In this document: in pieces, positions 15,501 to 34,922 of the stretch
Numbering within the stretch: position 1 is the stretch's first letter
How the letters are laid out: the number at the start of each line of letters is the position of its first letter
Source of the DNA: Bacteroidia bacterium
GTDB taxonomy: Bacteria; Bacteroidota; Bacteroidia; AKYH767-A; JBBKVM01
NCBI GenBank assembly: GCA_037968415.1
Contig: JBBKVM010000002.1
Location: forward strand, 6,030 to 70,029
Reading direction: 5' to 3'
DNA length: 64,000 nucleotides
The notes under the pieces: model-generated
Seen by the model: the letters and a program-made list of their open reading frames with translations, nothing else
Databases searched by the model: none
What the model was told of the DNA's origin: nothing
Translations under genes and position numbers: made by a program

Positions 15501-15769
15501 GGTGAGATTTTTAAGTTAAATAAACATGACAATTGGACAATTTATCATTTCATTTTGGGATTGTCAATACCCTATCATGTAATTTATTTCGCCACCGCCA
15601 TGTGGGTTTCATTAATATTGCAACATAACTTTCCTCACATAGTTTATACTCGTGGCCTTGTCCTCAAAGTGCAACAGTTACACACCTTTGTGAGTCTGAG
15701 AACCATCCATGACAGTTTCTTGAACAAATGAAGCATTGAATTACTCTTGCGCTAACACATTGCGAATGT

Positions 15770-17029: not shown

Positions 17030-17045
17030 TTCAAATATTTTGTGT

Positions 17046-17966: not shown

Positions 17967-17977
17967 GAATTGAATTA

Positions 17978-18949: not shown

Positions 18950-19134
18950 AATAATTGATTTTGCAAATTTAACATCACGTGCCAAATGTTAGTTGAAGTG
19001 GTATTTATGGTAATATAATTTTCATAGAAATTGCCCATGCTATTTTTAAAGCTGATCATCAATGATGCATTTCCGAGTTGTCCTAAAGCAACTTGGATTG
19101 AAAGAACAAAAACTAGTGAGATAATTAATTTCAT
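18946..19134 (-). pseudogene. 5' fragment duplicating the N-terminus of the 17978-18949 T9SS protein (probable gene remnant)
   Basis: The 62-aa ORF MKLIISLVFVLSIQVALGQLGNASLMISFKNSMGNFYENYITINTTSTNIW parallels ...AQISNTGLLISFEDNMGSFYEDYIKIDTSTNNIW of the adjacent gene and then terminates. Confidence 0.35.
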
Positions 19135-19275
19135 AATCCTATGATTTAATTACTTTAAAATCAACGGTTATTCCATTTTCATTTTACAAGGTACAGTTGA
19201 TGAATGAATAATCAAGTGGTTTTATTGCAGTCTCAAAAATTCAAAGATTTTTTTTGGTCGTATTGCCTTTCCGTT

Positions 19276-21741
19276 TCACTTCGCCACTGCCATGTGGGCC
19301 TCCCACAGCAGGGCTTGCTTGCTGTGGCCGGTAAATCGCAGTGCCCCCGCGCGTATGAGTATGATGAGCTGGTCGCGCGTGATGCCGGTGCGCGTTACAA
19401 AATCATCGAGCGACAGGTAGGGCCCTCCGCGCTCGCGCTCGTGCGGTATGGCCGCGGCCGCCCCGCTCTCCAGGTCTTTGATGTGGATGAAGCCCAGCCA
19501 GATGGTGGTGCCGCTGATGGTGGTGAGGTGCTCGCTATGGTTTACACACGGGTTCTCTATGTGCGCGCCCGCCAGCCGCGCCTCGTTTACATACACCCAT
19601 GTGGAATAAAAGCCGCCAAAGTTGTTGATCACCGCCACCATAAACTCCAGCGGATAGTGCGCCTTGAGGTACAGACTCTGATAGCTCTCCACGGCAAAAC
19701 TGGCCGAGTGCGCCTTGGAGAATGAGTACCCCGAAAAACTTTCTATCTGCCGCCACACCTCCTGCGCCAGCGTGTCGGAGTAGCCGCGGTCGCGGCAGTT
19801 GTCGAAAAACTTTTTGACGATGCGGTCGAGCTCGGCCCGCCCGCGAAACTTGCCGCTCATGGCCCTGCGCAGCACATCGGCCTCGCTCAGGTCGAGCCCC
19901 GCAAAATGGTGCGCCACCTTGATCACATCTTCCTGGTACACCATCACCCCGTAGGTTTCTTTGAGCAGCGCTTCCATCACCGGATGCAGGTATTCAAAAT
20001 CGTTGGGGTGATGAAAGCGGTGTATGTAGGCGCGCATCATACCGCTTTTGGCCACGCCCGGGCGGATAATGGAGCTGGCAGCCACCAGCGAAATATAGTT
20101 GTCGCAGCGCAGCTTCTTGAGCAGCCCGCGCATGGCAGGGCTCTCCACATAAAAACAACCGATGGTGTCGCCTTTGCGCAGTTGCTCGGCCACCTGCGGA
20201 TCTTGTTTGAAGCGGGGCACATCGTGTATGTCGATGCGGGTGCCGCGGTTGCGCTGTATGATGTTTACACTGTCTTGTATGTGTCCGATGCCGCGCTGGC
20301 TCAGTATGTCGAGTTTCTCGAAGCCTATCTCTTCGGCCACATACATATCAAACTGTGTGGTGGCAAAGCCTTTGGGCGGCATGTCGAGGGCGGTGTAGCT
20401 GAAGATGGGCTCTTCGCTCACCAGTATGCCGCCCGCGTGGATGCTGCGCAGGTTGGGATAGTCGGCTATGCGCTTGCCGAGCGAAAAAATATTGCGCGCT
20501 ATGTCGTCACATCTCTCTTCGGGAGGCGGGTTCTCCACCAGCGCGTCTATCTCTGTTTTGGGCAGGCCGTACACCTTGCCCAGCTCGCGGATGATGCTCT
20601 TGCCTTTGAAGGTGCTGTAGGTAGCCATAAGGGCGGTGTGGCTGCTGCCGTAGCGTTTGAACACGTAGTCGATAACCTGGTCGCGGTCGCGCCACGAGTA
20701 GTCGATGTCGAAGTCGGGCGGGCTGGTGCGCGCGGGGTTGATAAAGCGTTCGAAGTAGAGGTCGAGTTCGATGGGATCTACATCGGTGATGCGCAGGCAG
20801 TAGGCCACAATGCTGTTGGCTCCGCTGCCACGACCCACGTGGTAGAAGCCGCGCGACATGCTGTAGCGTATCACGTCCCAGGTGATGAGGAAGTACGCGA
20901 GAAAGCCAAGCCGGGTGATCACTTCCAGCTCGTGGGCGATGCGTTTCTGCGCCTCTTTGTTGCGCAGGCCGTAGCGGTATTCCATGCCTTCGTGCGCGAG
21001 TTTTTCGAGCAGCAGGCGGTCGTCATAGGCGTTGCCGGTAAATGTCTTTCTGTTTTTCACCACGCGGTAGTCGAAGTCGAAAGAGCAGTCGGCCGCGAGT
21101 TGCGAGGCGTTGGCAATCAGTTCGGGGTATGCCGCGCAGCGGGCGGCCAGCGCGGCCGGTGTGTGCACAACCTCGCCCGCATGGCATGTGGCCGTAGGCG
21201 GCAGCTTGCTCAGCACCACATTGTGATCGATGGCGCGCAGCAGGCGGTGCACCTGCATGTCGGTCGGCTGGGCGAGCGTAACGGGCTGCATGAGCACCAT
21301 GCGCTGTCGCTGGCGGGCGGTGGTGGTGGCCAGCCGCGAGAGTGCCGCCAGCGGCACGCCTATGTATTCGTTGTCGCGCAGCGGATGGGTGGTGCCCAGC
21401 GGATACACCACGTGCACATGGTCGAAAACAGGCGCGCGCGCGGGCAACGCCTGTGCGGCTATATGATAGTGCGACACAAAAGCGTTGATCTCGGCAAAGC
21501 CGCGGTTGTTGCGCGCCAGGCACGTGTACAGCAATGTGTCGCCATGCCTTATCTCCATGCCCGCCACGGGGGTGATGCCCGCGGTGCGGCAGGCTTTTAC
21601 AAAATCGAACGTGCCCGACACATTGTTGATGTCGGTGAGGGCAAGCACCTGCGCGCCCGCGGCAGAGGCCTGCTGCACGAGCGCCTCTACAGGCAGGGTG
21701 CCGTAGCGCAGGCTGTAATAGGAATGGCAGTTGAGGTACAT
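19276..21741 (-). pseudogene. dnaE2: N-terminal 821-aa fragment of DnaE2/ImuC-like error-prone DNA polymerase (PHP domain through HhH); truncated by insertion
   Basis: MYLNCHSYYSLRYGTLPVEALV (PHP start), then the pol III alpha palm/fingers core, ending in the HhH-like segment ...GGPYLSLDDFVTRTGITRDQLIILIRAGALRFTGHSKQALLWEAHMAVAK and a stop. Composition is visibly GC-rich and changes abruptly to AT-rich at 19275. The continuation is at 12265-12738. Confidence 0.65.
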
Positions 21742-21754
21742 CGTTAAAAAAAGT

Positions 21755-21766
21755 AATGACGATTAT
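21755..21766. promoter_or_regulatory. candidate SOS operator motif AATGACGATTAT within the palindrome TAATGA-N11-TCATTA (dnaE2 / DnaJ-protein divergent promoter region)
   Basis: The 12-mer matches 11 of 12 positions with the reverse complement of 34024-34035 in the lexA-like/dinB intergenic region. A 22-nt extended alignment has about 16 of 22 identities. Confidence 0.3.
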
Positions 21767-21869
21767 TTCATCATTAACAGGACGAATAAGTTAGCAACAT
21801 AAATCATAAAAACCGCAAAAAAGTTGCGGCCAATATGTACTTTTAAGACACACAGGCAGTTGTAAAACC

Positions 21870-22676
21870 ATGGCCGATCGGCATTATCACATATTGGGCA
21901 TACCACCGGGCGCAGGCAAAACAGAAATACGCAAGGCGTATCGCAGAAAAGTGTTGCTGCTGCACCCCGACCGCAACCCGTCACCGGCAGCGCGCGAAGA
22001 GTTTTTGCGTGTGCGCGAGGCCTATGATGCGTTGATGGAAAGAGGCGCGCAGCCCGTGCGCCCAGCGCCAAGGCCCGATGCCAAACCCTATCCGAAATAT
22101 TCGCGCCAGGCCAACGACCCGTTTTACAAAGCACGGTGGCAGGAGTACCGCAGACAACAACAGGCCAGACGTGCAGAAGAAGAAATAGAAAACACAAGCC
22201 TCTACTCTTTTCTGGTGTACACGGCCCGCGCGGTGGCCATTGCAGGTACGGCCTTGTGCCTGGCACTGCTGGCCGATTTTGTGTTGCCTGCACATACACA
22301 AGAGCAAACCATACTCAACCGAAATATTGAGATAGTGCAACAGCGAAGCATCGCAATTGAAAACAGAAGAATACATACCGAACGCTATCAAATACCGGTG
22401 CAGCGTGAAATGTTTTTCCTAATAGCCGAAGGCGACAAAATTACGGTGCAGGCAAGCCCGTTGTTTGAAATTCCGAGGCGGATGACGTACACAGGAACAG
22501 AGTTCAAGCCCGCTTATGGAATCTTCTCAAACTTCGCCATGTTTGCCATTGCATTATTTGCATTGTCGCTTGCCGGCTTGTGGTCATGGAAGCGCAAAGG
22601 CGATTTGCTGATCAATAGTTTTTTCAATCTGGCGCTGCTGATTATCGTGCTGTTTATCATGAATGCTTCGCATTGA
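21870..22676 (+). CDS. DnaJ (J-domain) membrane protein
   Basis: N-terminal J domain (YHILGIPPGAGKTEIRKAYRRKVLLLHPDRNPS...EEFLRVREAYDAL with HPD), a basic linker, then three to four predicted TM helices. The 5' half is GC-rich. Confidence 0.6.
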   Translation: MADRHYHILGIPPGAGKTEIRKAYRRKVLLLHPDRNPSPAAREEFLRVREAYDALMERGAQPVRPAPRPDAKPYPKYSRQANDPFYKARWQEYRRQQQARRAEEEIENTSLYSFLVYTARAVAIAGTALCLALLADFVLPAHTQEQTILNRNIEIVQQRSIAIENRRIHTERYQIPVQREMFFLIAEGDKITVQASPLFEIPRRMTYTGTEFKPAYGIFSNFAMFAIALFALSLAGLWSWKRKGDLLINSFFNLALLIIVLFIMNASH

Positions 22677-22736
22677 AGTACGAAACAAATCCATTTCGAA
22701 AATTAAGCTACTTTAGACTAACCAAAAACAACGACT

Positions 22737-25400
22737 ATGAAAAAACAAATCTACTTATTGCTTTTTTGCACCATCGCGATGATGAGTGCGTCAGCCCAAA
22801 ATAGTCTCACTGGAAAAATAACAGATGAACAAGGGGAAACCCTTATTGGTGTTACCATTTATGAAAAAGGCACCACCAACGGAACTACCTCCGATTTCAA
22901 TGGTAACTACAATTTAAAGTACTCAAAAACCAATGCGCTAATTGTATTCAGTTACGTAGGCTTCACCACACATGAAGTAAATGCGAATGGCAGAACTACG
23001 CTTGACATGGTGATGAAACAAGGTTTGGATTTAAATGCGGTGGAGATAGTGGGCTCGCGCAGACTCAACCGCACCGCAACTGAAACCACCGTACCGGTAG
23101 ACATCATTGATGTTTCAAAAGTGACCAGTACCACCGGAATGGTAGAGATAAATCAACTGCTGCAATATGCTGCACCCTCTTTCAACTCCAACAAACAATC
23201 GGGTGCCGATGGTGCTGACCACATAGACCCTGCAACTCTACGCGGACTGGGTCCTGATCAAACTTTGGTTCTTATAAATGGCAAGCGAAGACATCAATCC
23301 TCGTTGATTAATATTTTCGGATCACGTGGTCGTGGTAACACAGGCACTGATCTAAATACCATCCCTGCATCTTCAATAGAACGCATTGAGATTTTACGCG
23401 ATGGTGCTTCTGCACAATACGGTTCAGATGCTATTGCTGGCGTAATCAACATTGTGTTGAAATCAAACGTGAATGAATTCACCGGAAGTTTCTCTACCGG
23501 AACATTCAACGCAAAGCCACCTTCGGATGTGAATGTATTGAGTACCGAAGATTACGATGGAGGCACGGTGCAGGTAAATGGAAATTACGGTGTCAAAATC
23601 AAAGACGATGGGTATCTGAATCTGACCATGGATTACCAGGATAAGCAGCATACTAACAGGCCATCGGACCCTACAAAATTTGATATATACCGCAACCAGT
23701 TTGGCGATGCAGCGCAAGAAAATTTTGGTGCTTACTTCAATTCTGAGTTTAGTGCGGGAAGCAATGCAAGGGTTTATGCCTTTGGGGGATTCAACCATCG
23801 ATTTACAGACGCATACGCATGGACGCGTGTGCCTGATGAAGAAAGAAATGTGATTGAAATATATCCTAATGGTTTCGATCCAAAAATTCAATCTGTGATA
23901 AATGATAAATCTGTTTCAACGGGTATAAAGTCACAGATAAATAAATGGAACATGGATTTCAACAATACATTTGGAAGCAATCGTTTTCATTTTATAGTTG
24001 ACAACACATTGAATGCAACGCTGCTCGCCAATTCTCCTACACGATTTGATGCAGGAGGGTTTGAATTGTCGCAAAACACCACGGGCATGAACATGTCAAG
24101 ACTATACAACAGTTTTTGCAGCGGACTTAACCTGGCCATGGGTGCCGAATACCGTGTAGAAAACTATAGCATTTTTGCCGGTGAAGAAGGTTCTTATCAG
24201 AACTATGGTCCGGTGTATTTTGTGTATGATTTGTTTGATGATGATGGAAACGTTGTTGGACAGGATTCTACTTTACGTCCGGGCGGATCGCAGGGTTTCC
24301 CGGGGTTTCAACCTTCCAACGAACTAGATGAATCAAGAACCAATCTTGGAATTTACGCAGATGCTGAACTGGATGTAACGCAAGCTTTTGTAGTAAGTGC
24401 GGCAGGCCGGTTTGAAAGATACAGCGACTTTGGAAACACAGTGAATGGTAAATTAGCAGCGCGTTACAAAATCACATCAGCTGTTTCTATAAGAGCAGCA
24501 GCAAGTTCCGGATTCCGCGCGCCTTCATTGGCACAACTATACTACAATACCACATTTACCGATTTTGTTGCCGGAGTGCCAATAGACAAAATCATAGCAA
24601 AAAATAACAGCCCCATTACGCGCGCGCTGGGCATACCCGAACTGAAAGAAGAAAATTCTGTAAACATAAGCGGTGGTATCGCAGCAAATTACAAAGCATT
24701 CACAATTACCCTGGATGGATACTCAGTCAAAATAGAAGACAGGATAGTGTTGACAGGTGCCTTTACTGATGATGATCCGGATATTGGAGCAGAGCTGCAG
24801 CAGCTGAATGTAGGAGCTGCACAATTTTTTACCAACGCGGTGAATACCACCACCACCGGTGTAGACGCTATACTCAGTTATTCATTATGGCTTGCCGGCA
24901 AACACAATCTAAAATTTACGCTTGCAGGTAATTTTAATGAAATGAAAATTGATAAAATATATACCAACAAAAAACTCGAAGGCAAAGAAGGAACGTATTT
25001 TGGAGTTCGCGAACAGTATTTCTTGTTAGCCTCTGCGCCCAAAAGCAAAATGACTTTCGGAGTGGAATATGGATACAGTAATTTTGTGGGCTCGCTCAGA
25101 TTTACTCAGTTTGGTAAAGTTGAACTCATCAACTTCAATGACGATGGGGATGATGTGATCACTGTAAGTGATGATCCGTTTACCAATGAGTTGGATGTGT
25201 ACGACCCCAAAGTAACCACCGACTTATCTATTGGATATAAGTTTAAAAACGCACAACTAACTATTGGTGGCAACAACGTCCTCAATACGTATCCCGATCA
25301 ACAAGATCCCGCCCTTACCGAGTCTGGCGGGTTGTGGGATGCGGCACAAATGGGTTTTTCAGGAGCCTATTATTATACCCGACTTTCGTTTAAGTTTTAA
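22737..25400 (+). CDS. TonB-dependent outer-membrane receptor (CarbopepD_reg N-domain + plug + barrel)
   Basis: Signal peptide, a carboxypeptidase-regulatory-like N-domain (SLTGKITDEQGETLIGVTIYEKGT..TSDFNGNYNL) and a plug with DHIDPATLRGLGPDQTLVLINGKRR...IERIEILRDGASAQYGSDAIAGVINIVLK. The barrel ends in an aromatic residue (SFKF). No SusD-like partner follows it. Confidence 0.8.
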   Translation: MKKQIYLLLFCTIAMMSASAQNSLTGKITDEQGETLIGVTIYEKGTTNGTTSDFNGNYNLKYSKTNALIVFSYVGFTTHEVNANGRTTLDMVMKQGLDLNAVEIVGSRRLNRTATETTVPVDIIDVSKVTSTTGMVEINQLLQYAAPSFNSNKQSGADGADHIDPATLRGLGPDQTLVLINGKRRHQSSLINIFGSRGRGNTGTDLNTIPASSIERIEILRDGASAQYGSDAIAGVINIVLKSNVNEFTGSFSTGTFNAKPPSDVNVLSTEDYDGGTVQVNGNYGVKIKDDGYLNLTMDYQDKQHTNRPSDPTKFDIYRNQFGDAAQENFGAYFNSEFSAGSNARVYAFGGFNHRFTDAYAWTRVPDEERNVIEIYPNGFDPKIQSVINDKSVSTGIKSQINKWNMDFNNTFGSNRFHFIVDNTLNATLLANSPTRFDAGGFELSQNTTGMNMSRLYNSFCSGLNLAMGAEYRVENYSIFAGEEGSYQNYGPVYFVYDLFDDDGNVVGQDSTLRPGGSQGFPGFQPSNELDESRTNLGIYADAELDVTQAFVVSAAGRFERYSDFGNTVNGKLAARYKITSAVSIRAAASSGFRAPSLAQLYYNTTFTDFVAGVPIDKIIAKNNSPITRALGIPELKEENSVNISGGIAANYKAFTITLDGYSVKIEDRIVLTGAFTDDDPDIGAELQQLNVGAAQFFTNAVNTTTTGVDAILSYSLWLAGKHNLKFTLAGNFNEMKIDKIYTNKKLEGKEGTYFGVREQYFLLASAPKSKMTFGVEYGYSNFVGSLRFTQFGKVELINFNDDGDDVITVSDDPFTNELDVYDPKVTTDLSIGYKFKNAQLTIGGNNVLNTYPDQQDPALTESGGLWDAAQMGFSGAYYYTRLSFKF

Positions 25401-25413
25401 AAGTTAATGATTT

Positions 25414-25452
25414 AAAAAAGACCGCCCCCATAGCTATGGAGGCGGTCTTTCA
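25414..25452. terminator. bidirectional intrinsic terminator between convergent genes
   Basis: aaaaaAGACCGCCcccatagctatggaGGCGGTCTtt: an 8-bp GC-rich stem flanked by an A-run and a short T-run. It lies between the TonB receptor stop and the stop of the 25481-26425 (-) gene. Confidence 0.45.
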
Positions 25453-25480
25453 ATTAACACTAAAACAACAAAGCAATAGA

Positions 25481-26425
25481 TTATTTGCGGGCAAAGGCGT
25501 TGATGTGCAGCGCAAAATCTTTGGCCACCAGCGCGGATCCTGTGAGAGCGGGACTGCTGTAGCATACATCAATGCCCATAGAAACAGAGGGCGAATTCAC
25601 ACTGTCGCACGCACCAATTTTTGAAAGAAAACTGTGTGCCTCAATCTTAAAATCATCGGCATCGAGTTTGGTTTCTGTGGGCTGTGAGTACGCCACGCTC
25701 AGCGCCAGACTGCGAATCAGTTTGTCGTAGATGTCGGCAAATGCCTCTGTGTCGGCAACCAAATCAATACTGGATGCTTTGCCGTTGATGATTGACAGCA
25801 GCCCCTTTTGCCCATAGGTCATTTTGAAGAACGTAGCATACTCTTCGAGGGTGTGGCGTTGGCTGTGAAACACATCTTTCATCGACTCGGTGCGCGAACG
25901 CTCACCGGGAGCCATGCTGCAATTCATCTCCTCAATAGAACTCCACACCTTCATTTGATCGGCTTCAAAATCGTTGCGTTCCATACGCATCGAACGGTCT
26001 ACCAAATCAGCACTCTTATCCGCGCGCAGGCGGTGCTCGGCAATATTGCCTGAGTCATCAAACTTGTCGGAATTATAATTCCAACGACCACGCTCGGTGC
26101 AACTCACAGGCACTTCGGTTACCTGCATTGGCTCCAGCAAAACGGTCACATTTACAATTCTGTTTTGTTTGGCACCCGACAACTCTTCACCATCCACTAT
26201 CAATAGTGGCAACTCACACTTATTCTTCACCAAAAGCTTCCCCACCACCCCCGACTCACTTACTTCCGTGATCTCCGCCAACCCCTTCTGCAATGCCCTT
26301 CGCAAGGTTATAAACCCAAATGGCGCCTTCTCCACTGTCATCAGCGGCACTATGGTTAATCCCCCCATAGTCTTTACATCTCCCATACTCAATGTGTTAA
26401 TCAAACTCGTTACTGCGTTGTTCAT
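25481..26425 (-). CDS. hypothetical cytoplasmic protein (no family recognised)
   Basis: 314 aa with no signal peptide. It is divergent from the DUF4139 gene across a roughly 420-nt intergenic region. Confidence 0.5.
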   Translation of the reverse strand: MNNAVTSLINTLSMGDVKTMGGLTIVPLMTVEKAPFGFITLRRALQKGLAEITEVSESGVVGKLLVKNKCELPLLIVDGEELSGAKQNRIVNVTVLLEPMQVTEVPVSCTERGRWNYNSDKFDDSGNIAEHRLRADKSADLVDRSMRMERNDFEADQMKVWSSIEEMNCSMAPGERSRTESMKDVFHSQRHTLEEYATFFKMTYGQKGLLSIINGKASSIDLVADTEAFADIYDKLIRSLALSVAYSQPTETKLDADDFKIEAHSFLSKIGACDSVNSPSVSMGIDVCYSSPALTGSALVAKDFALHINAFARK

Positions 26426-26842
26426 GATTTTTTTGGTTTTTAACTGTTAGAAATGAACTGAATACAAATTTATACTCCCACTGCGCAGCCTATCTGCGCA
26501 GCGTTTTTTACTTTCCTATAATATACGAAACACCCATAATCGCCTGAAAGTCAGTGGTTTCTATGTTGCAAAAAAGAGTGTCATTTAAACAACCCTCATT
26601 ACCAACACGTTACAAACAGAAAAACGGCATCTTAGAATTGCAAAACCGCAGTTCAGCGAAAAAAATAATTTCAAAAAAGTGAAATAGTTATCAACAGGCG
26701 GAACAGTGAACGATTTCAATAACTGCAGCCAATTCTCAAAGCTGAATAACCCCAAGCACGGAATTGATAATTTTGTGGAAATGGATGATGCGTTGCATCT
26801 AACCGAAAATGCATTTTAAACGCACACAAATAAATCTACAAC

Positions 26843-28495
26843 ATGAACTTACCAACAAACACTTTTTCGAAATGGGTGAACCAGATTATGCTTCTCCCCG
26901 CCCTCCTACTCATCACTTTCTCTGCAGCGCATGGCGATGACGAAACCAAACTTGGCAACACTACCGTCAAAGACATTGTAATCTACCGATCGCAAGCCAT
27001 GGTTACCCGTACCGTTGAATTCAATCACAAAGCCGGAGAAACTATCTACATCATTGAAGGCTTGTCGTCCAAACTGATAGCCAACAGTATAGAAGTACGG
27101 GGCAAAGGCGATTACGTAATTCTGTCGGTGAGTACTCAACTCAATTATCTTGAGCCCACACCCAAATCGCGCCAGCAAATACAACTGGAAGATTCGCTAG
27201 AGATGTTTAAAAAAGACCAGGATCAACTGGCCAACCGCAAGGCAGCCTATAATGATGAGGTGGCACTACTGCAAGCCAACAAAAACATTGGCGGGGCCAA
27301 TGTAGGGATTAAAACAGAAGAGCTAATCAAAATGGCCGACTTGTTCAGAACACGGCTCTTTGATCTGAAGGAAAAAATTACCGACATCAATAACAAAGAA
27401 AAAAAATTGAATGAGCGTGTAAAGCAAATCAACAACCAATTGAAAGAAATAAAGAAAGTGGATCAACCTACAAGCCGCATTTTTGTGACCACCATAGCCA
27501 AAGGCGCGGGGCGCGGGCAGTTTGAGATAAACTATCTGGTAAACAATGCCGGATGGGAACCACTCTACAATTTGCGTTCGGCCGGCACCACCAGCAAAAT
27601 CACACTGGAAATGCGTGCGCAGGTGTATCAGCAAACGGGCGAAAAGTGGGACAAGATCAATCTAAAATTATCGACTGGTCAGCCCAGCCTTGGCGCAATC
27701 AAGCCGGTGTTGAATCCGTGGTACATTTCTTTCAGCAGACCTATGCCGCGTGTGCACACGCTCAAGTCGATGGAGATAACGACCTCGGGAAAGAAACGCG
27801 AAAATGATGAAATGATGCAGGATGCATCAGCATACCAATTATCTACTGCAGAAAGTTCAGGTTCATACACCGTGGCCACCGACCAAACTTTGCAAACCGA
27901 ATTTGAAGTGAAACTACCCTACTCCATTCCTTCAGACGGAAATAAATACACCATCGATTTGCAAACCAATGACCTCCCTGCCTCTTACACCTACAGCGCA
28001 GTACCCAAACTGGATAAAGATGCATTCTTAACTGCGGCCATCACCGGGTGGGAAGACATGAATCTGGTGGCAGGCAAAATGAGCATATTCTTTGAAGGCT
28101 CTTTTGTGGGTGAGTCATTTATTGATCCCGCTTCGGTACTTGATACTCTGAATGTTTCGTTGGGCCGCGACAAGCGCATTGTGATTAAGCGAACTTTACT
28201 TCGCGAAAAGAGCGGAAATCAGTTTTTGGGAGGCAACCGTGTGGTGGATCGCAAATATGAGATAGTGATTAAAAACACACGAAAGGAAAAAATAGAATTG
28301 GTGCTGGAAGATCAAATACCTGTTTCGCGCGTGAAAGAAATTGAAATAAAAGACACCGATCTGAACGGGGGCGAACTAAACGCTGATACAGGCATTGTAA
28401 CTTGGAAATTGAATATAAATCCTGGCGATACCGAGAAAAAAACATTGGGTTTTGCTGTCAAATACCCAAAAGACAAAATAATTATTGGCCTGTAA
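26843..28495 (+). CDS. DUF4139 (MuiA-like) family protein with coiled-coil centre
   Basis: Signal/anchor segment, an N-terminal beta-rich region, a long coiled-coil (LEDSLEMFKKDQDQLANRKAAYNDEVALLQANK...NNKEKKLNERVKQINNQLKEIKK) and a C-terminal domain. The architecture resembles TIGR02231/DUF4140+DUF4139 proteins; this assignment comes from memory of that family, not from a search. Confidence 0.45.
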   Translation: MNLPTNTFSKWVNQIMLLPALLLITFSAAHGDDETKLGNTTVKDIVIYRSQAMVTRTVEFNHKAGETIYIIEGLSSKLIANSIEVRGKGDYVILSVSTQLNYLEPTPKSRQQIQLEDSLEMFKKDQDQLANRKAAYNDEVALLQANKNIGGANVGIKTEELIKMADLFRTRLFDLKEKITDINNKEKKLNERVKQINNQLKEIKKVDQPTSRIFVTTIAKGAGRGQFEINYLVNNAGWEPLYNLRSAGTTSKITLEMRAQVYQQTGEKWDKINLKLSTGQPSLGAIKPVLNPWYISFSRPMPRVHTLKSMEITTSGKKRENDEMMQDASAYQLSTAESSGSYTVATDQTLQTEFEVKLPYSIPSDGNKYTIDLQTNDLPASYTYSAVPKLDKDAFLTAAITGWEDMNLVAGKMSIFFEGSFVGESFIDPASVLDTLNVSLGRDKRIVIKRTLLREKSGNQFLGGNRVVDRKYEIVIKNTRKEKIELVLEDQIPVSRVKEIEIKDTDLNGGELNADTGIVTWKLNINPGDTEKKTLGFAVKYPKDKIIIGL

Positions 28496-28611
28496 CACGC
28501 CATAGCAAAGGACAATAGCATTAATTGTTGTTGGTACAATTATTGTTATTATTATACACTGTCACGCAAGTGGCAGTGTATTTTTTTTAACTCCTCAACT
28601 AATAAATAATC

Positions 28612-29226
28612 ATGAAGAAAAGAATCCTTGTAATGCCGGCATTGATAGCAATTTTGACGCTCAGCGCATTTGTTGCCGTAAGCACATTGCATACCGATGT
28701 ATATGTAGTGGACACCAAAGCCTCCACATTAAACTGGACAGGTAAAAAATTCACGGGCCAGCATTCAGGCACAATCAATATTAGCAGTGGAAAGTTGCTC
28801 GACAACCACGGAACCATGTCAGGCTCAATTGTCATTGATATGTCCAGCATTAACAACACTGATCAGGAAGGAGGCATGAAAGGTAAATTGGAAGGCCATC
28901 TTAAATCAGCCGACTTTTTTGATGTGGTTACATACCCTACTGCAACCTTTGTAATCAAATCGATTGTACCGGTAGCAGAAAAGAAAGACGCTCATACACA
29001 TACCATAAGCGGTGACCTCACTATTAAAGACAAGACCAACCCACTTTCTTTTGACGCGGTTTACAAAAACGGAGAGACCGGCATGATCTGGTCAGGAACC
29101 GCAACCATTGACCGTTCAAAATATGATGTGAAATACGGTTCAAAAACATTTTTTGCCGATATCGGAGACAAAGTCATTTATGACGACTTCGATGTACAGT
29201 TTGTAATAGTGGCAAATCAAAAGTAA
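28612..29226 (+). CDS. YceI-like periplasmic polyisoprenoid-binding protein
   Basis: Signal peptide plus the YceI pattern (YVVDTKASTLNWTGKKF...HSGTI......MSGSIVIDMSSINT......LKSADFFDVVTYPTATFV...GDLTIKDKTNPLSF). Confidence 0.75.
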   Translation: MKKRILVMPALIAILTLSAFVAVSTLHTDVYVVDTKASTLNWTGKKFTGQHSGTINISSGKLLDNHGTMSGSIVIDMSSINNTDQEGGMKGKLEGHLKSADFFDVVTYPTATFVIKSIVPVAEKKDAHTHTISGDLTIKDKTNPLSFDAVYKNGETGMIWSGTATIDRSKYDVKYGSKTFFADIGDKVIYDDFDVQFVIVANQK

Positions 29227-29248
29227 GACCACCCACATTTAACGGAGC

Positions 29249-29298
29249 CCTGTCCCCGGGTTGTGAATTTCATTCACAATTCGGGGACAGGTGTTTTT
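29249..29298 (+). terminator. intrinsic terminator after the yceI-like gene
   Basis: CCTGTCCCCGggttgtgaatttcattcacaattCGGGGACAGG then tgttttt: a 10-bp GC stem with a nested inner inverted repeat in the loop, followed by a T-run. Confidence 0.6.
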
Positions 29299-29374
29299 AC
29301 GCTTGTGAGTAACTGTAGATTGGTATAAATTTATTTTTGTTTCTGTTCAAGAATACCCCTCTATTACCTTTCGC

Positions 29375-30988
29375 ATGGAAATCCTTTCCAAAAAAGTCCT
29401 GTCTATCTTCATGGTGTTTGCCATGTTGCATCTGTCGATAAGCTGCACTTCAAAGAAAACATGGGTATATGAAGACTTAAGCAAGGAGCTGACTAAGCAA
29501 GAATTTGTTTCGGCCCAAAACCAGCTTAAGTACATTACTATAAAATCTGGAGGTATTACCGAAACGGTTCAGATTGATGAAATAAACACTATTGAGAATT
29601 ACTTTTTGTGTAAAATAATTCAACCCACTCAACCGAATTCAAAGGACAAGATTTCAAATCAAAAAACAAAAATCAAGGAGGTTCAGATATTTGCCACCAA
29701 CATTGCCCTCAATGACAGTATAATAAAAGTCCCTTTCGGATCCGTGTCAAGAGTCGCGATTACCGAATCTACCGGAAGCAGTGCAGGCAAAACTATTCTG
29801 GCCGTGGTTGGGATTGCAGCTGCCGTTTTTGTATTGGCTCTTGTCATCATTGCATTGACCAAATCTTCATGTCCTTACGTGTATGTGTATGAAGATGGTT
29901 CATACCAATTCAAAGGAGAAATATTTGGAGGCGCCATTTTTTTGCCTCTTGAACGAGAAGATTATTTGACTTTGCTCGAAAACGTGGATTTACATCAAAA
30001 TGGTGAAATCAAGATTCAGATTGCCAATGAACTGCTTGAAAAACAGTACACCAATCTGGCTGAGGTTATAGTAGTGGAGCATGAACCAAATGCAAAAACA
30101 CGGATTGCCTCAAATGGACAGATTCTCCTTGTGGGCGATCCTATTCCTCCCATCACAGCTACACTAAACGGAATCATTGATATTTCAAAACAGATAGCTT
30201 CTTCTGATTCTCTCGTATGTTACTTTGACCAGGCAAATCTCCAAAACAAGGCTCAATTAGATTTGAAATTTGTGAAGCCCCACAATGCTGCTCAAGCCAA
30301 TTTGCTGCTCACCGCTAAAAATAGCTTGTGGCTTGATTACACTTTTGGAAAGTTTACCAGTTTGTTTGGCTCCTACTACAATCAATGGATTGTAAAGCAG
30401 CGGCATGCAAACAAAGATTCATTGCAACAATGGACTAGACAACAACAATTACCCCTGAAAATTGAATTAAAAATTGACAACCGATGGACTGTTGTAGATG
30501 AAATTCCAACCATTGGTCCGCTGGCCAACAGGGATATGTGTGTACCGCTAAATTTATCAGGATTGTATTCGGACACATTAGAAGTACGCCTTTCATGCGG
30601 ATTTATGTTCTGGGAAGTGGACCAGGTAGCAATAGATTTTACTCCACAAACCGCACTGAGAACCTTCACGCTTAAGCCCACATCAGCCGTGAATGAGAAC
30701 AACAAAGACGTGTTGGCTAATCTGATGTGGGATGATAATTATTACTTAAGTCAACCCAAACCTGGGAATGTTGCCACTATTAAATATTTATGCAAGAATG
30801 GCAAATCAGACAAGAAATATGACGTGTATCTGCATGGCAAAGGTTATTATGAACATGTTAGAGAATATTCGGGAATGCCGGACATAGCATATTTAAAATC
30901 ATTCAAACAGCCTGGCAGTTTTACCAATTTTTCCAGACAACTCTATGATAGGTACCTGAACGAAATGGGTCCGATAGTGGCCAAATAA
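29375..30988 (+). CDS. hypothetical membrane-anchored protein (lipoprotein-type signal, one internal TM helix, ~370-aa C-terminal domain)
   Basis: MEILSKKVLSIFMVFAMLHLSISC lipobox-like start and an internal TM ILAVVGIAAAVFVLALVIIALT. No known motif. The stop lies 3 nt before the radical-SAM start, which suggests translational coupling. Confidence 0.55.
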   Translation: MEILSKKVLSIFMVFAMLHLSISCTSKKTWVYEDLSKELTKQEFVSAQNQLKYITIKSGGITETVQIDEINTIENYFLCKIIQPTQPNSKDKISNQKTKIKEVQIFATNIALNDSIIKVPFGSVSRVAITESTGSSAGKTILAVVGIAAAVFVLALVIIALTKSSCPYVYVYEDGSYQFKGEIFGGAIFLPLEREDYLTLLENVDLHQNGEIKIQIANELLEKQYTNLAEVIVVEHEPNAKTRIASNGQILLVGDPIPPITATLNGIIDISKQIASSDSLVCYFDQANLQNKAQLDLKFVKPHNAAQANLLLTAKNSLWLDYTFGKFTSLFGSYYNQWIVKQRHANKDSLQQWTRQQQLPLKIELKIDNRWTVVDEIPTIGPLANRDMCVPLNLSGLYSDTLEVRLSCGFMFWEVDQVAIDFTPQTALRTFTLKPTSAVNENNKDVLANLMWDDNYYLSQPKPGNVATIKYLCKNGKSDKKYDVYLHGKGYYEHVREYSGMPDIAYLKSFKQPGSFTNFSRQLYDRYLNEMGPIVAK

Positions 30989-30990
30989 AT

Positions 30991-32226
30991 ATGGATTCCA
31001 TTACGATTGTTGCAAGTCGAGTATCTAAAAACACCACGCCCTGGAGTCACATCACATTCTGGCTATTAAAAAGAAAAACAGCTGTGATGCGAAGTATTAG
31101 TTTGTTCAATGCACGGTTTGAGCTCAAAATATTTTTACTGAAACAGTTATTATCGTATTATCGAAATCCATTGACTGTATTGCGAAAGGCAAAATACTTT
31201 GAACAATACAGGAGAAGTGTTCATGGTGACATGCCCATAAATAAATTCAAGAAGGTGGGTGATAAAAAGCATTGGTTTTTGTACGCTCCCGGTTTTCCCT
31301 CCCAAAGTTTTGCTAAAATGATACACTTCGAGTTGAACCGGCTCGAAAAAAAAGACAATCACAAAAATGATTTAAGATTTGTTTTTCTGGCTATTACAAA
31401 TAAGTGTCCGCTCAATTGTGAGCATTGTTTTGAAGGGTTGAATCTGAATAAACCTGAAGTTTATAATTACAATGATTTAGAGCAGATTGTATCCGGGTTA
31501 ATAAAAAAGGGCGTGAGCCAGATTCACCTTAGTGGCGGAGAGCCTATGTTGCGTGTAAATGATATCGTATCACTTTCAAAAAAATACAGCAGTTCCATAG
31601 AATTTTGGGTAGTAACTTCAGGATTCAACGTTACCGAAATGAACGCTATGCGTTTGAAGGAGGCAGGGGTTACAGGACTGGTGGTAAGTATAGATCACTT
31701 CGATGCAGAAGTTCATGACAAATTCAGAAGGAGATCCGGGTCATTTGAAGAAGCAGTCAATGCGATTAAAAATGCGAAGCACAATAATCTGGTCACTGCA
31801 ATCTCTATTTGTGCCACCAAATCGTTTATCAGCGAACATAACCTGTTCGAATATGCACACATGGCATTTCGTATGGGAGTTGAATTTATTCAATTGCTCG
31901 AACCCAGACAGGCAGGCAACTATATTGACAAAGATGTGATGCTACATAAATCACACATCCAGACATTGGAACAATTTTACTTTACAATAGCTACTGACCC
32001 TACTTACCAAAATTATCCCATCATTGTGTATCCAGGCTATTATCAGCGAAAAGCGGGGTGTTTTATGGCCGGGCAGCGCTCACTTTATATTGACACCAAG
32101 GGTGATGTGATGTCATGTCCTTTTTGTCATAATAAATCGGGAAATGTGCTGACAGGAAATATTGATGATTGTATATCTAAAACCAAAGACATCGGTTGTC
32201 ATGATTATTCTGTTTCTTCTTTGTAA
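30991..32226 (+). CDS. radical SAM enzyme with C-terminal SPASM/twitch-like Cys cluster
   Basis: CxxxCxxC at residues ~139-146 (ITNKCPLNCEHCFEG), a SAM-binding GGEP motif (HLSGGEPML) and C-terminal Cys-rich motifs (GCFMAG, SCPFCH, DCISK, GCHD). A roughly 110-130 aa extension precedes the core if the first ATG is used; alternative starts at M81 or M110 would remove it. Confidence 0.75.
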   Translation: MDSITIVASRVSKNTTPWSHITFWLLKRKTAVMRSISLFNARFELKIFLLKQLLSYYRNPLTVLRKAKYFEQYRRSVHGDMPINKFKKVGDKKHWFLYAPGFPSQSFAKMIHFELNRLEKKDNHKNDLRFVFLAITNKCPLNCEHCFEGLNLNKPEVYNYNDLEQIVSGLIKKGVSQIHLSGGEPMLRVNDIVSLSKKYSSSIEFWVVTSGFNVTEMNAMRLKEAGVTGLVVSIDHFDAEVHDKFRRRSGSFEEAVNAIKNAKHNNLVTAISICATKSFISEHNLFEYAHMAFRMGVEFIQLLEPRQAGNYIDKDVMLHKSHIQTLEQFYFTIATDPTYQNYPIIVYPGYYQRKAGCFMAGQRSLYIDTKGDVMSCPFCHNKSGNVLTGNIDDCISKTKDIGCHDYSVSSL

Positions 32227-32235
32227 ATTCGGAAA

Positions 32236-32814
32236 ATGGTTAAGCGGCTTTTTCTCTTATTTGTTTTGAATGCGTTTTTATTTCCCCTCGTTGGAAATAG
32301 CCAAACCACAATTCGCAGACTTGAGAAGAGGCCATACATGGCATCAATCGAATCGAGAATGTTCGATACTCCAATTGTTGGCAGCTTGTATGAAGTAAAT
32401 GACAGCAGTATCGTATTATTAAGGAAAGTAACTTCTTCTCGTTCCACGCTACAGCATCTTCAGTTCAATTACGATGAAATCAATACCCTTAGACTAAAAA
32501 GAAAAAACAGCGTTGCGATGGGGATATTTTTGGGATTTTTAGGTGGTTTCCTTTTGGGCGAGTTTGTTGGATTATCAGCTTTTGAAGATGACGAATGCCA
32601 ATCGTCAGGTCCTATATTATTACAAGTCGTTGCTTGTTCTACTGCTCGCTCAAAAGAATACAAAGCATTATCGCTTGCAGTCGGCTTGGGTATTGGTGGT
32701 GGTTTAATAGGCGGTTTAATCGGAACCCAAAATGATATTTTCTTAATCCACCACGATTACAATCGATGGGCTGAGCTTTCGCCCAGGATAACGCGATACG
32801 CTATCATCCAGTAA
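32236..32814 (+). CDS. hypothetical secreted/membrane protein with Gly-zipper segments
   Basis: Signal peptide MVKRLFLLFVLNAFLFPLVGNSQ and two Gly-rich hydrophobic segments (GIFLGFLGGFLLGEFVGL; LAVGLGIGGGLIGGLIGTQ). It starts 9 nt after the radical-SAM stop. Confidence 0.5.
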   Translation: MVKRLFLLFVLNAFLFPLVGNSQTTIRRLEKRPYMASIESRMFDTPIVGSLYEVNDSSIVLLRKVTSSRSTLQHLQFNYDEINTLRLKRKNSVAMGIFLGFLGGFLLGEFVGLSAFEDDECQSSGPILLQVVACSTARSKEYKALSLAVGLGIGGGLIGGLIGTQNDIFLIHHDYNRWAELSPRITRYAIIQ

Positions 32815-32842
32815 CAGCCTTGATTATTAGTTTACTTCATCA

Positions 32843-33997
32843 TCACCGTATGGTCACCGCGCGCATTACGGCTTCTTCGCCAAAGCGTTTTTTGATGCGG
32901 TCCATGGCCTGGTAGAGGCCGGCCAGGCGCTGGGTGTCTTCAAAAAGATTGATCTGCATGGAGCCTTGCACAAGGTGCGAGAGCCTTACGCCCACCAGCC
33001 GTATGAGCATGCGCCTGCTGTACAACTTGTCGAATAGTTCGTGGGCATGGGCCATCAGCACGTGGTCGGCCGCGGTGTAGGGTATGCGCAGCTGGCGTGT
33101 TTCGGTGTCGAAGTTGGCGTAGCGTATTTTCACCGTGATGCAAGAGGTGAGCCTGTTGCGGCTGCGCAGTTTGAAGGCCAGCTCTTCGGCCATGCCGGTA
33201 AGCAGCGCGCGAATGCCGGTTACATCTATGGTGTCTTTGTCGAAGGTGGTCTCGGTGCTTATGGACTTGCGTTCGCTGTACGCCACCACGGGGCTGTTGT
33301 CTATGCCGTTGGCTTTTTTCCATATCACCGTGCCTGCCTTGCCCAGCACGCGGGCAAGCATCTCGGGCGGCGTGCGCTGTAGCGTGTGTATGGTGGCTAT
33401 GCCCATGCCGCGTAGCAGCCGGAAGGTGGCCTCGCCTATCATGGGTATGCGCGCGATGGAAAGGGGCGAGAGAAAAGTCTTTTCGGTGCCGTGATGTATC
33501 TGTATGCGGCCATCGGGCTTGGCTTCGTTGGTCCCTATTTTAGACACGGTCTTATTGGCCGACAGGCCAAAAGAAATGGGCAGCCCTGTCTCGCGCAGTA
33601 TGCCCGCCTTCAGCTCATCGGTGTACTGCAGGCATCCGTGAAAACGATCCATGCCGGTAAGGTCAATATAAAACTCATCGATAGATGCCTTCTCATACAA
33701 CGGTACACTTTCGGCTATCACCTCGGTAACCAGCCCCGAATAGCGCGAGTAAGCCTCCATGTCGCCACGTATCACCAGTGCATCGGGGCACAACTGGCGC
33801 GCCATGCGCATGGGCATGGCCGAGCGCACGCCATACACGCGCGCCTCGTAGCTGCACGAGGCCACCACGCCCCTGTCGCTGAGGCCACCAATAATAAGCG
33901 GCCGCCCGGCCAGCGCGCTATTACGCAGCCGCTCCACGCTCACAAAAAACGTGTCCAGATCCATGTGTACGATATGCCGCGGCTCACTGCTATGCAT
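32843..33997 (-). CDS. dinB: DNA polymerase IV (Y-family, catalytically competent DinB-like)
   Basis: HMDLDTFFVSVE and SIDEFYIDLT carry the D-D-E catalytic residues in the positions of E. coli DinB (VDMDCFF / SLDEAYLDVT). The size is 384 aa. The gene is GC-rich and divergently arranged from the LexA-like repressor. Confidence 0.8.
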   Translation of the reverse strand: MHSSEPRHIVHMDLDTFFVSVERLRNSALAGRPLIIGGLSDRGVVASCSYEARVYGVRSAMPMRMARQLCPDALVIRGDMEAYSRYSGLVTEVIAESVPLYEKASIDEFYIDLTGMDRFHGCLQYTDELKAGILRETGLPISFGLSANKTVSKIGTNEAKPDGRIQIHHGTEKTFLSPLSIARIPMIGEATFRLLRGMGIATIHTLQRTPPEMLARVLGKAGTVIWKKANGIDNSPVVAYSERKSISTETTFDKDTIDVTGIRALLTGMAEELAFKLRSRNRLTSCITVKIRYANFDTETRQLRIPYTAADHVLMAHAHELFDKLYSRRMLIRLVGVRLSHLVQGSMQINLFEDTQRLAGLYQAMDRIKKRFGEEAVMRAVTIR

Positions 33998-34023
33998 GGG
34001 TAACTCTTTCTTTTTACGACTAT

Positions 34024-34035
34024 ATTATCGTCATT
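34024..34035. promoter_or_regulatory. candidate SOS operator (reverse complement AATGACGATAAT; flanked by the inverted repeat GACTATA-N12-TATAGTC) between dinB and the lexA-like gene
   Basis: It shares 11 of 12 nt with 21755-21766 upstream of dnaE2. It sits in the 120-nt divergent promoter region of the repressor and Pol IV genes. Confidence 0.3.
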
Positions 34036-34118
34036 TTATAGTCAATTAAATTAGCAATTTGTTTGCAAATTTATTACCTTGCACTATAATTTTTTATTCA
34101 CAACAAGGAGGAACACAC

Positions 34119-34922
34119 ATGCTGTATTTTGGAAAAAACACCCAACTGCTGCGCAAGCGCAAAAACAGATCGCAGGAAGAAATGGCCACCGCGCTGGGCA
34201 TTACGCGCACCTCACTCAGCGGATACGAACTGGGCAACAACCAGCCACCCTACGAATTGCTCATCGCCATTTCCGATTATTTTAAGGTACCCGTTGACGT
34301 GCTGCTGCGCACCAGCCTGGCAAAAATGAGCGAGTTCAAACTGAGCGAACTGGAGCGCGGCTATGACCACGCACACATCACCGGATCGCAACTGCGTGTG
34401 CTGGCCACCACCACCGACAGCAACAACACCGAAAACACCGAACTGGTACCCGTAAAAGCCAAGGCCGGCTACACCCGCGGATATGCCGACCCCGATTACA
34501 TAAAAGTACTGCCCGCATTCAGCCTGCCCTTTCTCTCGCGCGAACGCAAGTACCGCACCTTCCCCATCAGTGGCGACTCTATGCCGCCCGTAGCGGACGG
34601 ATCGTGGGTGACAGGTGAATACCTACAGAACTGGAACCACATCAAAAACGGATTGCCATACATCATTGTCACCGCTGACGAAGGCATCGTATTTAAAATG
34701 GTGCACAACCATATTAAAGACAAAGGCTCACTGCTGCTGTGCTCTACCAACCCACTGTACAAGCCTTACGAAATAGCCGTAAGCGATGTGCTCGAAGTAT
34801 GGAAATTCGTACACTTCATAAGTTCCGAACTGCCCGAAAGCAACCAACCACGACAGGACCTCACCACCGCAGTCATCAACCTGCAGAAAGAAGTAGCCCA
34901 GCTAAAAATGAAACTGGACTAA
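34119..34922 (+). CDS. LexA-like SOS repressor (HTH_XRE DNA-binding domain + S24 self-cleaving peptidase domain)
   Basis: N-terminal XRE HTH (EEMATALGITRTSLSGYELGNNQP), an A-G cleavage-site candidate (VKAKAGYT), a catalytic Ser motif GDSM (ISGDSMPPV) and a downstream Lys (VFKMV). The ATG at 34119 is preceded by AAGGAGG; the ORF caller's upstream start at 34059 is unlikely. GC-rich. Confidence 0.75.
   Translation: MLYFGKNTQLLRKRKNRSQEEMATALGITRTSLSGYELGNNQPPYELLIAISDYFKVPVDVLLRTSLAKMSEFKLSELERGYDHAHITGSQLRVLATTTDSNNTENTELVPVKAKAGYTRGYADPDYIKVLPAFSLPFLSRERKYRTFPISGDSMPPVADGSWVTGEYLQNWNHIKNGLPYIIVTADEGIVFKMVHNHIKDKGSLLLCSTNPLYKPYEIAVSDVLEVWKFVHFISSELPESNQPRQDLTTAVINLQKEVAQLKMKLD

Follow-up and report, generated by a model that had tools for sequence, protein, structure and literature searches.

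A dispersed SOS mutasome locus of a Bacteroidia bacterium with DnaE2 encoded in two pieces

Genes of the locus

The stretch of DNA considered here comprises 64,000 nucleotides from a Bacteroidia bacterium (assembly GCA_037968415.1, contig JBBKVM010000002.1, positions 6,030 to 70,029) and is referred to below as the window. It carries a LexA-like repressor gene, the Y-family polymerase gene dinB, the C-family polymerase gene dnaE2 and an SRAP gene, which make up a dispersed version of the Bacteroidota PolY2-DnaE2/LexA-like/SRAP cluster. The system itself is known; the presence of DnaE2 in two intact pieces is new. Coordinates are positions in the window, and gene families were assigned with Pfam and NCBIfam. 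The genes of the cluster, with protein lengths in amino acids (aa), are the following.

34119-34922, plus strand, open frame up to a TTG at 34059: lexA-like repressor gene (HTH_3 and Peptidase_S24)
32843-33997, minus strand: dinB, Y-family, Bacteroidetes PolY2 type (Pfam IMS and IMS_C; NCBIfam DNA polymerase IV)
19276-21741, minus strand: dnaE2 N cistron, 821 aa (PHP, Pol3 alpha core, finger, HHH_6 / (HhH)2)
12265-12738, minus strand: dnaE2 C cistron, 157 aa (probable clamp motif and OB fold)
1-495, plus strand: SRAP (YedK-like) gene, truncated by the window edge (Pfam SRAP), convergent to dnaE2 as in relatives

Along the minus strand, the divergent lexA-like gene is followed by dinB, by 11.1 kb of other DNA with eight genes (21742-32842), by the N cistron of dnaE2, by a further 6.5 kb (12739-19275), by the C cistron, and finally by the 11.8 kb or so that lead to the convergent and syntenic SRAP gene. 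These measurements agree with the initial annotation of the sequence, which had placed about 11 kb between dinB and dnaE2 and 6.5 kb inside dnaE2.

All SOS genes at the locus are intact. The catalytic acidic motifs of DinB are kept in the translation (MDLDTFF and SIDEFY), as expected of a catalytically competent polymerase of the Y-family type. DnaE2 is usually a single polypeptide with PHP, Pol3, (HhH)2 and OB domains; all of these are present here, but on open reading frames (ORFs) of 821 and 157 aa, and a tau-binding C-terminal domain was not found in either piece.

The contiguous cassette of related genomes

A one-genome-per-species scan yielded 80 related loci (L001-L080), nearly all from Bacteroidota metagenome-assembled genomes (MAGs), in which DnaE2 is intact and 58-65% identical to the N piece over residues 1-821; the figure rises to 74% for P0002. 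The C piece is 50-65% identical to the C-terminal 146 aa of the same 80 proteins. DinB shares 58-67% identity with the product of the gene directly upstream of dnaE2 (61 loci), and the LexA-like protein 47-57% with that of the divergent repressor gene of 52 related loci.

What does the cassette look like when it is undisturbed? The lexA-like gene is divergent from dinB in 52/52 loci that hold all three genes, and the cassette is contiguous there. All 61 loci with both polymerase genes have them on one strand, dinB immediately preceding dnaE2; the gap between the two has a median of 221 nt and is below 1 kb in 57 of these loci. Matches to the N and C pieces of the window are contiguous within one ORF of about 980 aa in 80/80 loci, and 70 additional metagenome loci also run continuously through the dnaE2 linker (150/150 in total). 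The arrangement that the initial annotation had called canonical, a repressor divergent from a Y-family polymerase that is followed by dnaE2, is thus the rule among the relatives, and the order and orientation of the SOS genes in the window are exactly those of this arrangement. Since the cassette is contiguous in relatives and dispersed here with the same order, fragmentation by insertion is supported. Three blocks of accessory genes of host-like character, most of them for receptors and for proteins secreted by the type IX secretion system (T9SS), have expanded the locus from about 7 kb to 35 kb, leaving SOS gene order and orientation unchanged. The earlier idea of fragmentation by later insertions therefore stands insofar as the cassette has been pulled apart; the 6.5 kb, on the other hand, probably lies between cistrons that were already separate and did not break an intact gene.

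Four other lineages (L015, 4612-9802; L060, 1884-9296; L066; and L073) independently have 2.4-8.4 kb of DNA inserted between dinB and dnaE2, with genes for secreted proteins or regulators, and this spacer seems to serve repeatedly as a landing site. In L015 and L060 the inserted genes lie on the opposite strand and are of secreted, T9SS or two-component type.

The closest full-length relative, L081, has an intact DnaE2 of 980 aa that is 74% identical to that of the window. Its SRAP gene lies 2 kb downstream of dnaE2 with one gene in between, and the SRAP protein of the window is 65% identical to that of L081, compared with 34-41% for the SRAPs of other loci. No dinB is present within 4.2 kb upstream of the L081 dnaE2, where the contig ends. 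Of the 80 loci, 12 have an SRAP gene no more than 10 kb from the cassette. SRAP is thus a recurrent neighbour of the cassette, which accounts for the earlier impression, borne out by the SRAP gene at the start of the window, that DNA-damage genes are over-represented here.

Base composition and the question of import

The mean GC content of the window is 44.2%. The cassette genes and some of their neighbours have the following composition, GC3 being the GC content at third codon positions.

dnaE2 N piece: GC 60.3%, GC3 78.6%
dnaE2 C piece: GC 56.8%, GC3 69.6%
dinB: GC 58.4%, GC3 73.2%
lexA-like gene: GC 50.8%, GC3 62%
Neighbours: udk, GC3 47%; TonB receptor, GC3 40%; low-GC T9SS genes, GC3 24-34%

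Per-gene GC and GC3 values confirm that the lexA-like gene, dinB and the dnaE2 pieces are richer in GC than their surroundings, as had been noticed by eye. Among the remaining ORFs of the window, the 32 that reach 200 aa have a GC3 of 0.45 +/- 0.07 with a maximum of 0.575, and dnaE2 lies 4.8 standard deviations higher. Tetranucleotide correlation with the remaining window is 0.11-0.49 for the cassette blocks and 0.67-0.92 elsewhere, inserted DNA included. GC at first and second codon positions is ordinary in the cassette, so that the compositional effect falls on synonymous sites. The SRAP gene is host-like in composition (GC3 0.43). The J-domain gene next to dnaE2 had also been counted in the GC-rich module; its GC3 of 0.57 is within the backbone range and it is unlinked to the cassette in every relative, for which reasons it was rejected as a member.

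The GC content changes abruptly at 19.2, 21.8, 32.8 and 34.0 kb. Steps as sharp as these, on a single 74-kb contig seen once, could suggest an assembly chimera in which the cassette of a GC-rich organism is interleaved with other DNA. Such an artefact would hardly leave the four cassette pieces in canonical order and orientation, nor place clean gene boundaries, with stop and start exactly at the junctions. Decayed duplicates of the dnaE2 junctions occur within the insert (see below), and comparable dinB-dnaE2 insertions are present in four independent assemblies. A chimera is therefore very improbable.

Has the cassette been imported? The initial annotation had proposed that a high-GC SOS cassette was acquired horizontally by this 44% GC genome and was later fragmented by insertions. 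A GC3 33 points above the backbone and tetranucleotide correlations of 0.1-0.5 are what recent import would produce, and DnaE2 genes are generally thought to spread horizontally (PMC3919608). The GC excess has, however, been found to be a property of the cassette in all relatives examined. The GC content of dnaE2 exceeds that of its flank in 55/55 relatives with at least 5 kb of flanking DNA (mean +6.3 points). Its GC3 is above the flank mean in each of the 39 relatives that have six or more flanking ORFs (mean +12.4, range +2.7 to +33) and above that of every single flanking ORF in 35 of these. The mean GC3 excess in relatives is +16.6 for dinB and +7.8 for the lexA-like gene; L081 (4217-7159) and L084 (1-739), the sister lineages discussed below, show a GC excess as well. 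The GC3 of the cassette tracks that of the host (r = 0.88). Related loci are only about 60% identical in protein and their synonymous sites are consequently saturated, which indicates that the excess is maintained and is not the un-ameliorated relic of a donor. Atypical composition, one of the marks of a genomic island, is thus present, yet it is equally so in every relative and does not discriminate.

The search for a donor points the same way. In a set of 5.8 billion proteins, the best DnaE2 match, at 74% identity, belongs to a genome of 38% GC and the next ones reach about 66%; no closer high-GC donor of the cassette was found. The best matches of the backbone protein ParC are 71-72% identical, a divergence similar to that of DnaE2, whose closest relatives here are the 74% match from the 38% GC host and the C piece of L084 at 71%. 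The nearest NCBI ParC and the nearest DnaE2 are from different assemblies, the ParC matches being labelled Bacteroidia or Bacteroidota MAG. Exact sequences of proteins of the window had no match in public assemblies. At the cassette there are no integrase or transposase domains and no border repeats; the sole tRNA gene lies at 41.9 kb, and neither integrase, tRNA gene nor att site adjoins the cassette borders. The cassette is present in the sister lineages, which argues against a patchy presence. Synteny of dnaE2 with SRAP is shared with L081, whose SRAP gene has host-like GC; the putative operator is lineage-specific; and three large later insertions demand a long residence. Recent horizontal gain, with the same GC3 excess in 39/39 relatives, a strong dependence on host GC3 and no closer donor, can accordingly be regarded as improbable, although the excess of the window matches the largest seen among relatives.

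The break in dnaE2

The N ORF ends with ...LLWEAHMAVAK-TGA and the C ORF starts with ATG-KYELKIQEELF (MKYELKIQEELF). The break falls within a variable linker after (HhH)2, just before an xxxLF sequence at the position of the beta-clamp motif as given in PMC3919608; the LF of the C piece is probably a non-canonical version of that motif. In the alignment, the combined linker amounts to 15-16 aa in the window as against 14-17 aa in intact proteins, which means that no residues have been lost and that there is no room for intein halves. A split-intein DnaE was rejected on the same grounds: the N piece stops 5 aa past the conserved EAH and the C piece begins 10 aa ahead of the conserved LF, leaving no space for about 100 + 35 intein residues.

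A PDB sequence search with the C piece gave no match. Its AlphaFold model (pLDDT 86) has an OB fold, and a fold search with the model returned Mycobacterium tuberculosis DnaE1 as the best PDB match, followed by the OB folds of SSB, RPA and aminoacyl-tRNA synthetases.

Is the divided gene still functional? A 6.5-kb interruption is most simply read as an insertion into a gene, and the main rival to a working two-part enzyme is that dnaE2 is a recent pseudogene: an intact gene would have been hit in its linker, little time would have passed, and the break in the related locus L084 would be a sequencing error. The gene is indeed uninterrupted in 150 other loci, including the closest full-length relative, and error-ridden dnaE2 fragments are common in databases. 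The coding sequence, in contrast, bears no sign of decay. The joined pieces retain 220/220 residues that are invariant in 70 intact homologues, so that none has changed, and 333/337 columns with a conservation of 95% or more, of which intact genes lack 4.1 on average. A Tajima relative-rate test against the intact L081 counted 53 and 61 lineage-specific changes, without acceleration, and in a comparison of the window with L084, dN/dS (the ratio of nonsynonymous to synonymous substitution rates) comes to 0.12 over the C piece and 0.26 over the tail of the N piece.

Age of the split

L084, contig Ga0620836_030854 of IMG metagenome 3300076145, is a 2.1-kb JGI metagenome contig whose C piece is 71% identical to that of the window. 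On it the last part of the N ORF directly adjoins a complete C ORF, with overlapping stop and start codons (TCA-TGA / ATG-ACC, an ATGA overlap) and no insertion, and the C start codon aligns codon-for-codon with that of the window. A tree over the shared 236 aa unites the window and L084 as sisters with 78% bootstrap support and the trio with intact L081 with 100%. Among the relatives, a sister lineage is alone in having an interrupted gene, with the break aligned at the same start codon; 0/150 other loci are interrupted at the linker. A metagenome scan with the C piece gave nothing closer than 65%.

Stand-alone C-terminal DnaE2 proteins of about 160 aa, entered in databases as 'hypothetical proteins', were considered as recurrent splits and rejected. 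Most of them start at the conserved Met of EAHML, and L085 and L086 are multiply frame-broken; such proteins are artefacts or pseudogenes and are not comparable. Where these two loci are concerned, L085 (1201-4480 of an 816-kb contig) and L086 (327-4483 of a 25-kb contig) have dnaE2 in two or three ORFs, L086 also has a broken dinB, and either indel-rich assemblies or decaying cassettes would explain the breaks.

The insert between the two cistrons contains decayed copies of the gene ends. Its parts, and the junctions to which they correspond, are as follows.

19275-19302, minus strand: junction copy A, the last N-cistron codons and stop, GAGGCCCACATGGCAGTGGCGAAGTGAA; direct repeat with 15579-15606
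15579-15606, minus strand: junction copy A' (decayed), CCCACATGGCGGTGGCGAAATAAATTAC, running past the N stop to the opening bases of the C cistron (TAC)
12704-12738, minus strand: junction copy B, the start of the dnaE2 C cistron
14508-14540, minus strand: junction copy B' (decayed), GTGAAATACGAAATTAAAATCC--GAAGGGGTTTT, a duplicate of the C-cistron start that begins with GTG
15607-19274, minus strand: segment X3, three low-GC (31-38%) T9SS cargo paralogues (335, 306 and 438 aa), with Por_Secre_tail in all
14541-15578, minus strand: segment X2, a TTHB210-like lipoprotein gene (14700-15500), bounded by A' and B'
12739-14507, plus strand: segment X1, a 535-aa T9SS cargo gene (12828-14435) plus the 89 nt upstream of dnaE2-C

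The direct repeat formed by A and A' is well above chance (permutation P < 1/300; z = 6.8). A' is identical at 24/28 positions to the reconstructed contiguous junction CCCACATGGCAGTGGCGAAGTGAAATAC (P < 0.001 by shuffling), and it spans the stop, the start and TAC in an out-of-frame register, which speaks against a recent hit on an intact gene. B' matches GTGAAATACGAACTC...CTTTT (z = 5.8; P < 0.001 by shuffling, permutation P ~0.01). The ancestral junction probably read ...GCG AAG TGA overlapping GTG AAA TAC, with a GTGA overlap like the ATGA of L084. A' and B' have diverged by about 18% from A and B and have become more AT-rich, while the 2.9 kb of coding sequence has acquired no disruptive change; a recent pseudogene would hardly combine the two. 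Taken together, the layout of L084, the copies A' and B', their divergence and the dN/dS values favour a dnaE2 of two cistrons under purifying selection, with a split that is older than the insert, and on this comparison of sequences DnaE2 probably works as two subunits. A recent pseudogene is judged unlikely.

Tandem accretion of the 6.5-kb insert at an att site was rejected: every junction should then hold both arms, and no extra similarity was detected (P = 0.17-0.95). Within X3 there are recent local duplications (15767-19134), the C-terminal 225 nt of two T9SS genes being 87% identical, and a truncated 5' copy of the gene for the 335-aa protein (18946-19134) adjoins the dnaE2-N junction.

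The repressor and operator-like sites

The repressor matches HTH_3 at 3e-13 and Peptidase_S24 at 9e-5 (22.6 bits, just below the gathering score of 23.3). An XRE-type helix-turn-helix (HTH) N-domain and an S24 C-domain characterize the non-canonical LexA family of Bacteroidetes, whose SOS regulon includes SRAP (PMC8565304), and both are present here. An AG cleavage site (VKAKAGY) and GDSM...K catalytic residues are candidates picked by eye only.

Relatives have two TGATTA-N5-TAATCA boxes between the lexA-like gene and dinB; this sequence is not enriched in the window, where sites resembling TGACGA-N5-TCGTCA occur (4 found, 1.6 expected). Two of them lie in front of cassette genes.

34017-34033: operator-like imperfect palindrome CGACTATATTATCGTCA in the lexA-like/dinB spacer, with 2 mismatches to TGACGA-N5-TCGTCA; a tentative site
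21757-21773: operator-like palindrome TGACGATTATTTCATCA, 16 nt upstream of the dnaE2 start, with 1 mismatch to TGACGA-N5-TCGTCA

The first stands where relatives have the first of their TGATTA-N5-TAATCA boxes, and the second is the only match to TGACG-N7-CGTCA with at most one mismatch in the 64 kb. In L081 a perfect TGACGAAAATACCGTCA precedes dnaE2 by 17 nt, and there is no operator upstream of SRAP. These sites suggest that dnaE2 has an operator-like control region of its own in this lineage, which would fit a long-standing separation of dinB and dnaE2. The 89 nt upstream of dnaE2-C contain two half-site-like repeats, TTTCGTCA, at 12749-12756 and 12761-12768.

A perfect palindrome, GTGAAC-GGT-GTTCAC (GTGAACGGTGTTCAC), lies at about 12795-12809 with A/T-run flanks, in the divergent region between dnaE2-C and the gene for the 535-aa T9SS protein; it could be an operator or the relic of a bidirectional terminator. 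The dinB leader has tandem repeats with units of about 8-18 nt in many relatives (L001, L011, L023, L041, L052, L062, L066, L070, L078 and L080), situated between the operator pair and the dinB start, for example CAACAACTAAACTAC x5 in L001. The dinB leader of the window is without such tandem repeats.

Other genes between the cassette parts

The two larger blocks of intervening DNA are described as follows.

21870-32814: insertion block 1, the 11.1 kb between dinB and dnaE2, with eight host-like genes: J-domain protein, TonB-dependent receptor, ARPP-1, DUF4140/4139, YceI, orf537, radical SAM/SPASM maturase and orf192
492-12260: block 3, from dnaE2 to SRAP, with a ribonucleotide reductase, three tandem T9SS cargo paralogues of about 880 aa and a Zn metallopeptidase

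The intervening genes of all blocks, which include seven T9SS cargo proteins and the TTHB210-like lipoprotein, are host-like in composition; the tetranucleotide correlation of block 1 with the backbone is 0.86-0.91. Block 1 has no mobility genes and no repeats above chance level at its borders, and no integrase or transposase domains were found by Pfam or NCBIfam in the proteins of the window.

In block 1, an ARPP-1 family gene adjoins the DUF4140/DUF4139 gene (25481-28495). The genes for orf537 (no family), the radical SAM/SPASM maturase and orf192 (no family) occupy 29375-32814, convergent with dinB, and are possibly a peptide-maturation locus of the RiPP (ribosomally synthesized and post-translationally modified peptide) type. 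An SOS-regulated DNA-repair pair of radical SAM protein and uracil-DNA glycosylase was also considered for the radical SAM gene and rejected, NCBIfam assigning it to the SPASM-type maturases and no glycosylase being present. In block 3, the three tandem paralogues (3323-11320) contain SprB, DUF11, DUF7619, Ig_7 and Por_Secre_tail domains, and the ribonucleotide reductase gene (856 aa; 492-3062, minus strand) is convergent with SRAP (1-495), with a 4-nt overlap.

Evolution and function of the locus

The evidence is best accommodated by a cassette that is a resident Bacteroidota SOS mutasome locus and not a recent import, and in which the split of DnaE2 is functional; we give this reading a probability of roughly 0.6. 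Under this reading, the 6.5 kb would have met a dnaE2 that was already divided, like that of L084, into two overlapping cistrons (...AAG-TGA / GTG-AAA...). The insert would have entered stepwise between them, each step duplicating gene ends in such a way that both frames survived, and the two DnaE2 polypeptides would assemble non-covalently into a working enzyme. The N cistron would be expressed from its own repressor-controlled promoter with a TGACGA-N5-TCGTCA-like box, and the C cistron would now be transcribed from its own upstream region. DNA damage would lead to RecA-stimulated self-cleavage of the S24 repressor and to derepression of dinB and both dnaE2 units, the products of which, together with RecA, would carry out error-prone lesion bypass.

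Several observations weigh against a resident locus with a functional split. The GC3 excess of the window, +33 points, is at the very top of the range among relatives, and only one contig represents the host genome. L084 is a single short contig in which a one-base deletion error within 233-263 would suffice as an explanation, one added base restoring a single ORF with a 23-aa linker, and the other short C-terminal 'proteins' in databases derive from multiply frameshifted assemblies. The junction copies are short (28-35 nt); they may have been non-identical when they were formed, as att-like sites would be, which would remove the timing argument, and Pfam and NCBIfam identify no recombinase in the window that would account for duplications of about 30 nt. 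The half-sites preceding the C cistron carry little statistical weight (5 matches, 2.5 expected).

A broader proposal combines two statements and is put forward tentatively, at somewhat less than even odds. First, the DnaE2 of this clade of uncultured Bacteroidota would be a natural, intein-free enzyme of two subunits, a catalytic core and a clamp-motif/OB subunit, whose genes were once coupled by a 4-nt overlap and are now 6.5 kb apart. Second, the GC3 of PolY2-dnaE2 would be held 10-30 points above that of the host throughout the phylum by a process specific to the locus and not by foreign origin. Frequent recombinational exchange with GC-biased gene conversion, a mutational footprint in cis and selection at synonymous sites are candidate causes. 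The GC anomaly would then be a phylum-wide and apparently steady-state property of one operon, and standard GC and tetranucleotide detectors would label the cassette an imported island in every genome. The locus also illustrates how a conserved operon can take up accessory genes for secreted proteins and yet survive; duplication of gene ends, which keeps both reading frames alive, would be part of that process.

Comparison with known systems

The closest counterpart is the putative PolY2-DnaE2 mutasome of Bacteroidetes (Timinskas and Venclovas 2019; PMC6511836). As in that system, there is no imuA or ImuB-C gene in the 64-kb window, a lexA-type gene lies alongside, and identity to dozens of such operons is 58-67%. 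Unlike those operons, the polymerase genes of the window are 11 kb apart and DnaE2 is in two ORFs.

The repressor resembles the non-canonical LexA described by Sanchez-Osuna et al. (2021; PMC8565304) in combining an XRE-type HTH with S24, in being divergent from a translesion polymerase gene and in having SRAP in the regulon. By prediction, the operators are TGATTA-N5-TAATCA in the relatives studied here and seemingly TGACGA-N5-TCGTCA in the lineage of the window. No such regulators were reported in complete genomes of Bacteroidales (PMC8565304), whereas many of the MAG relatives found here are labelled Bacteroidales.

Mutasome genes are also dispersed elsewhere, for example in mycobacteria, where imuA'-imuB and dnaE2 are at separate loci (PMC3919608, PMC6511836). 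These split imuA-imuB/dnaE2 cassettes share with the window the scattering of LexA-regulated parts, each unit with its own SOS control. They are split between genes, whereas here the coding sequence of dnaE2 is itself divided as well.

Cyanobacterial DnaE is a C-family alpha subunit made from two separated genes, and in this respect resembles the DnaE2 of the window. The cyanobacterial halves are joined by a split intein (cited in PMC3919608); here there are no intein halves, the pieces sum to a normal protein and any reconstitution would be non-covalent. The enzymes differ too, DnaE2 not being the replicative DnaE1, and the division falls before the clamp motif and OB fold. If the two-subunit interpretation is true, the separate clamp-motif/OB polypeptide is a natural experiment on the role of this module in C-family polymerases, and it extends the known ways in which modular mutasomes are assembled.

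Other C-family polymerases also vary in this module: the OB domain is N-terminal in PolC, and there are DnaE3 variants with no OB domain (PMC3919608). In those enzymes the domain is permuted or lost, unlike here, where it would be supplied as a separate polypeptide; they do make clear that an OB domain need not be attached covalently to the C-terminus of the core.

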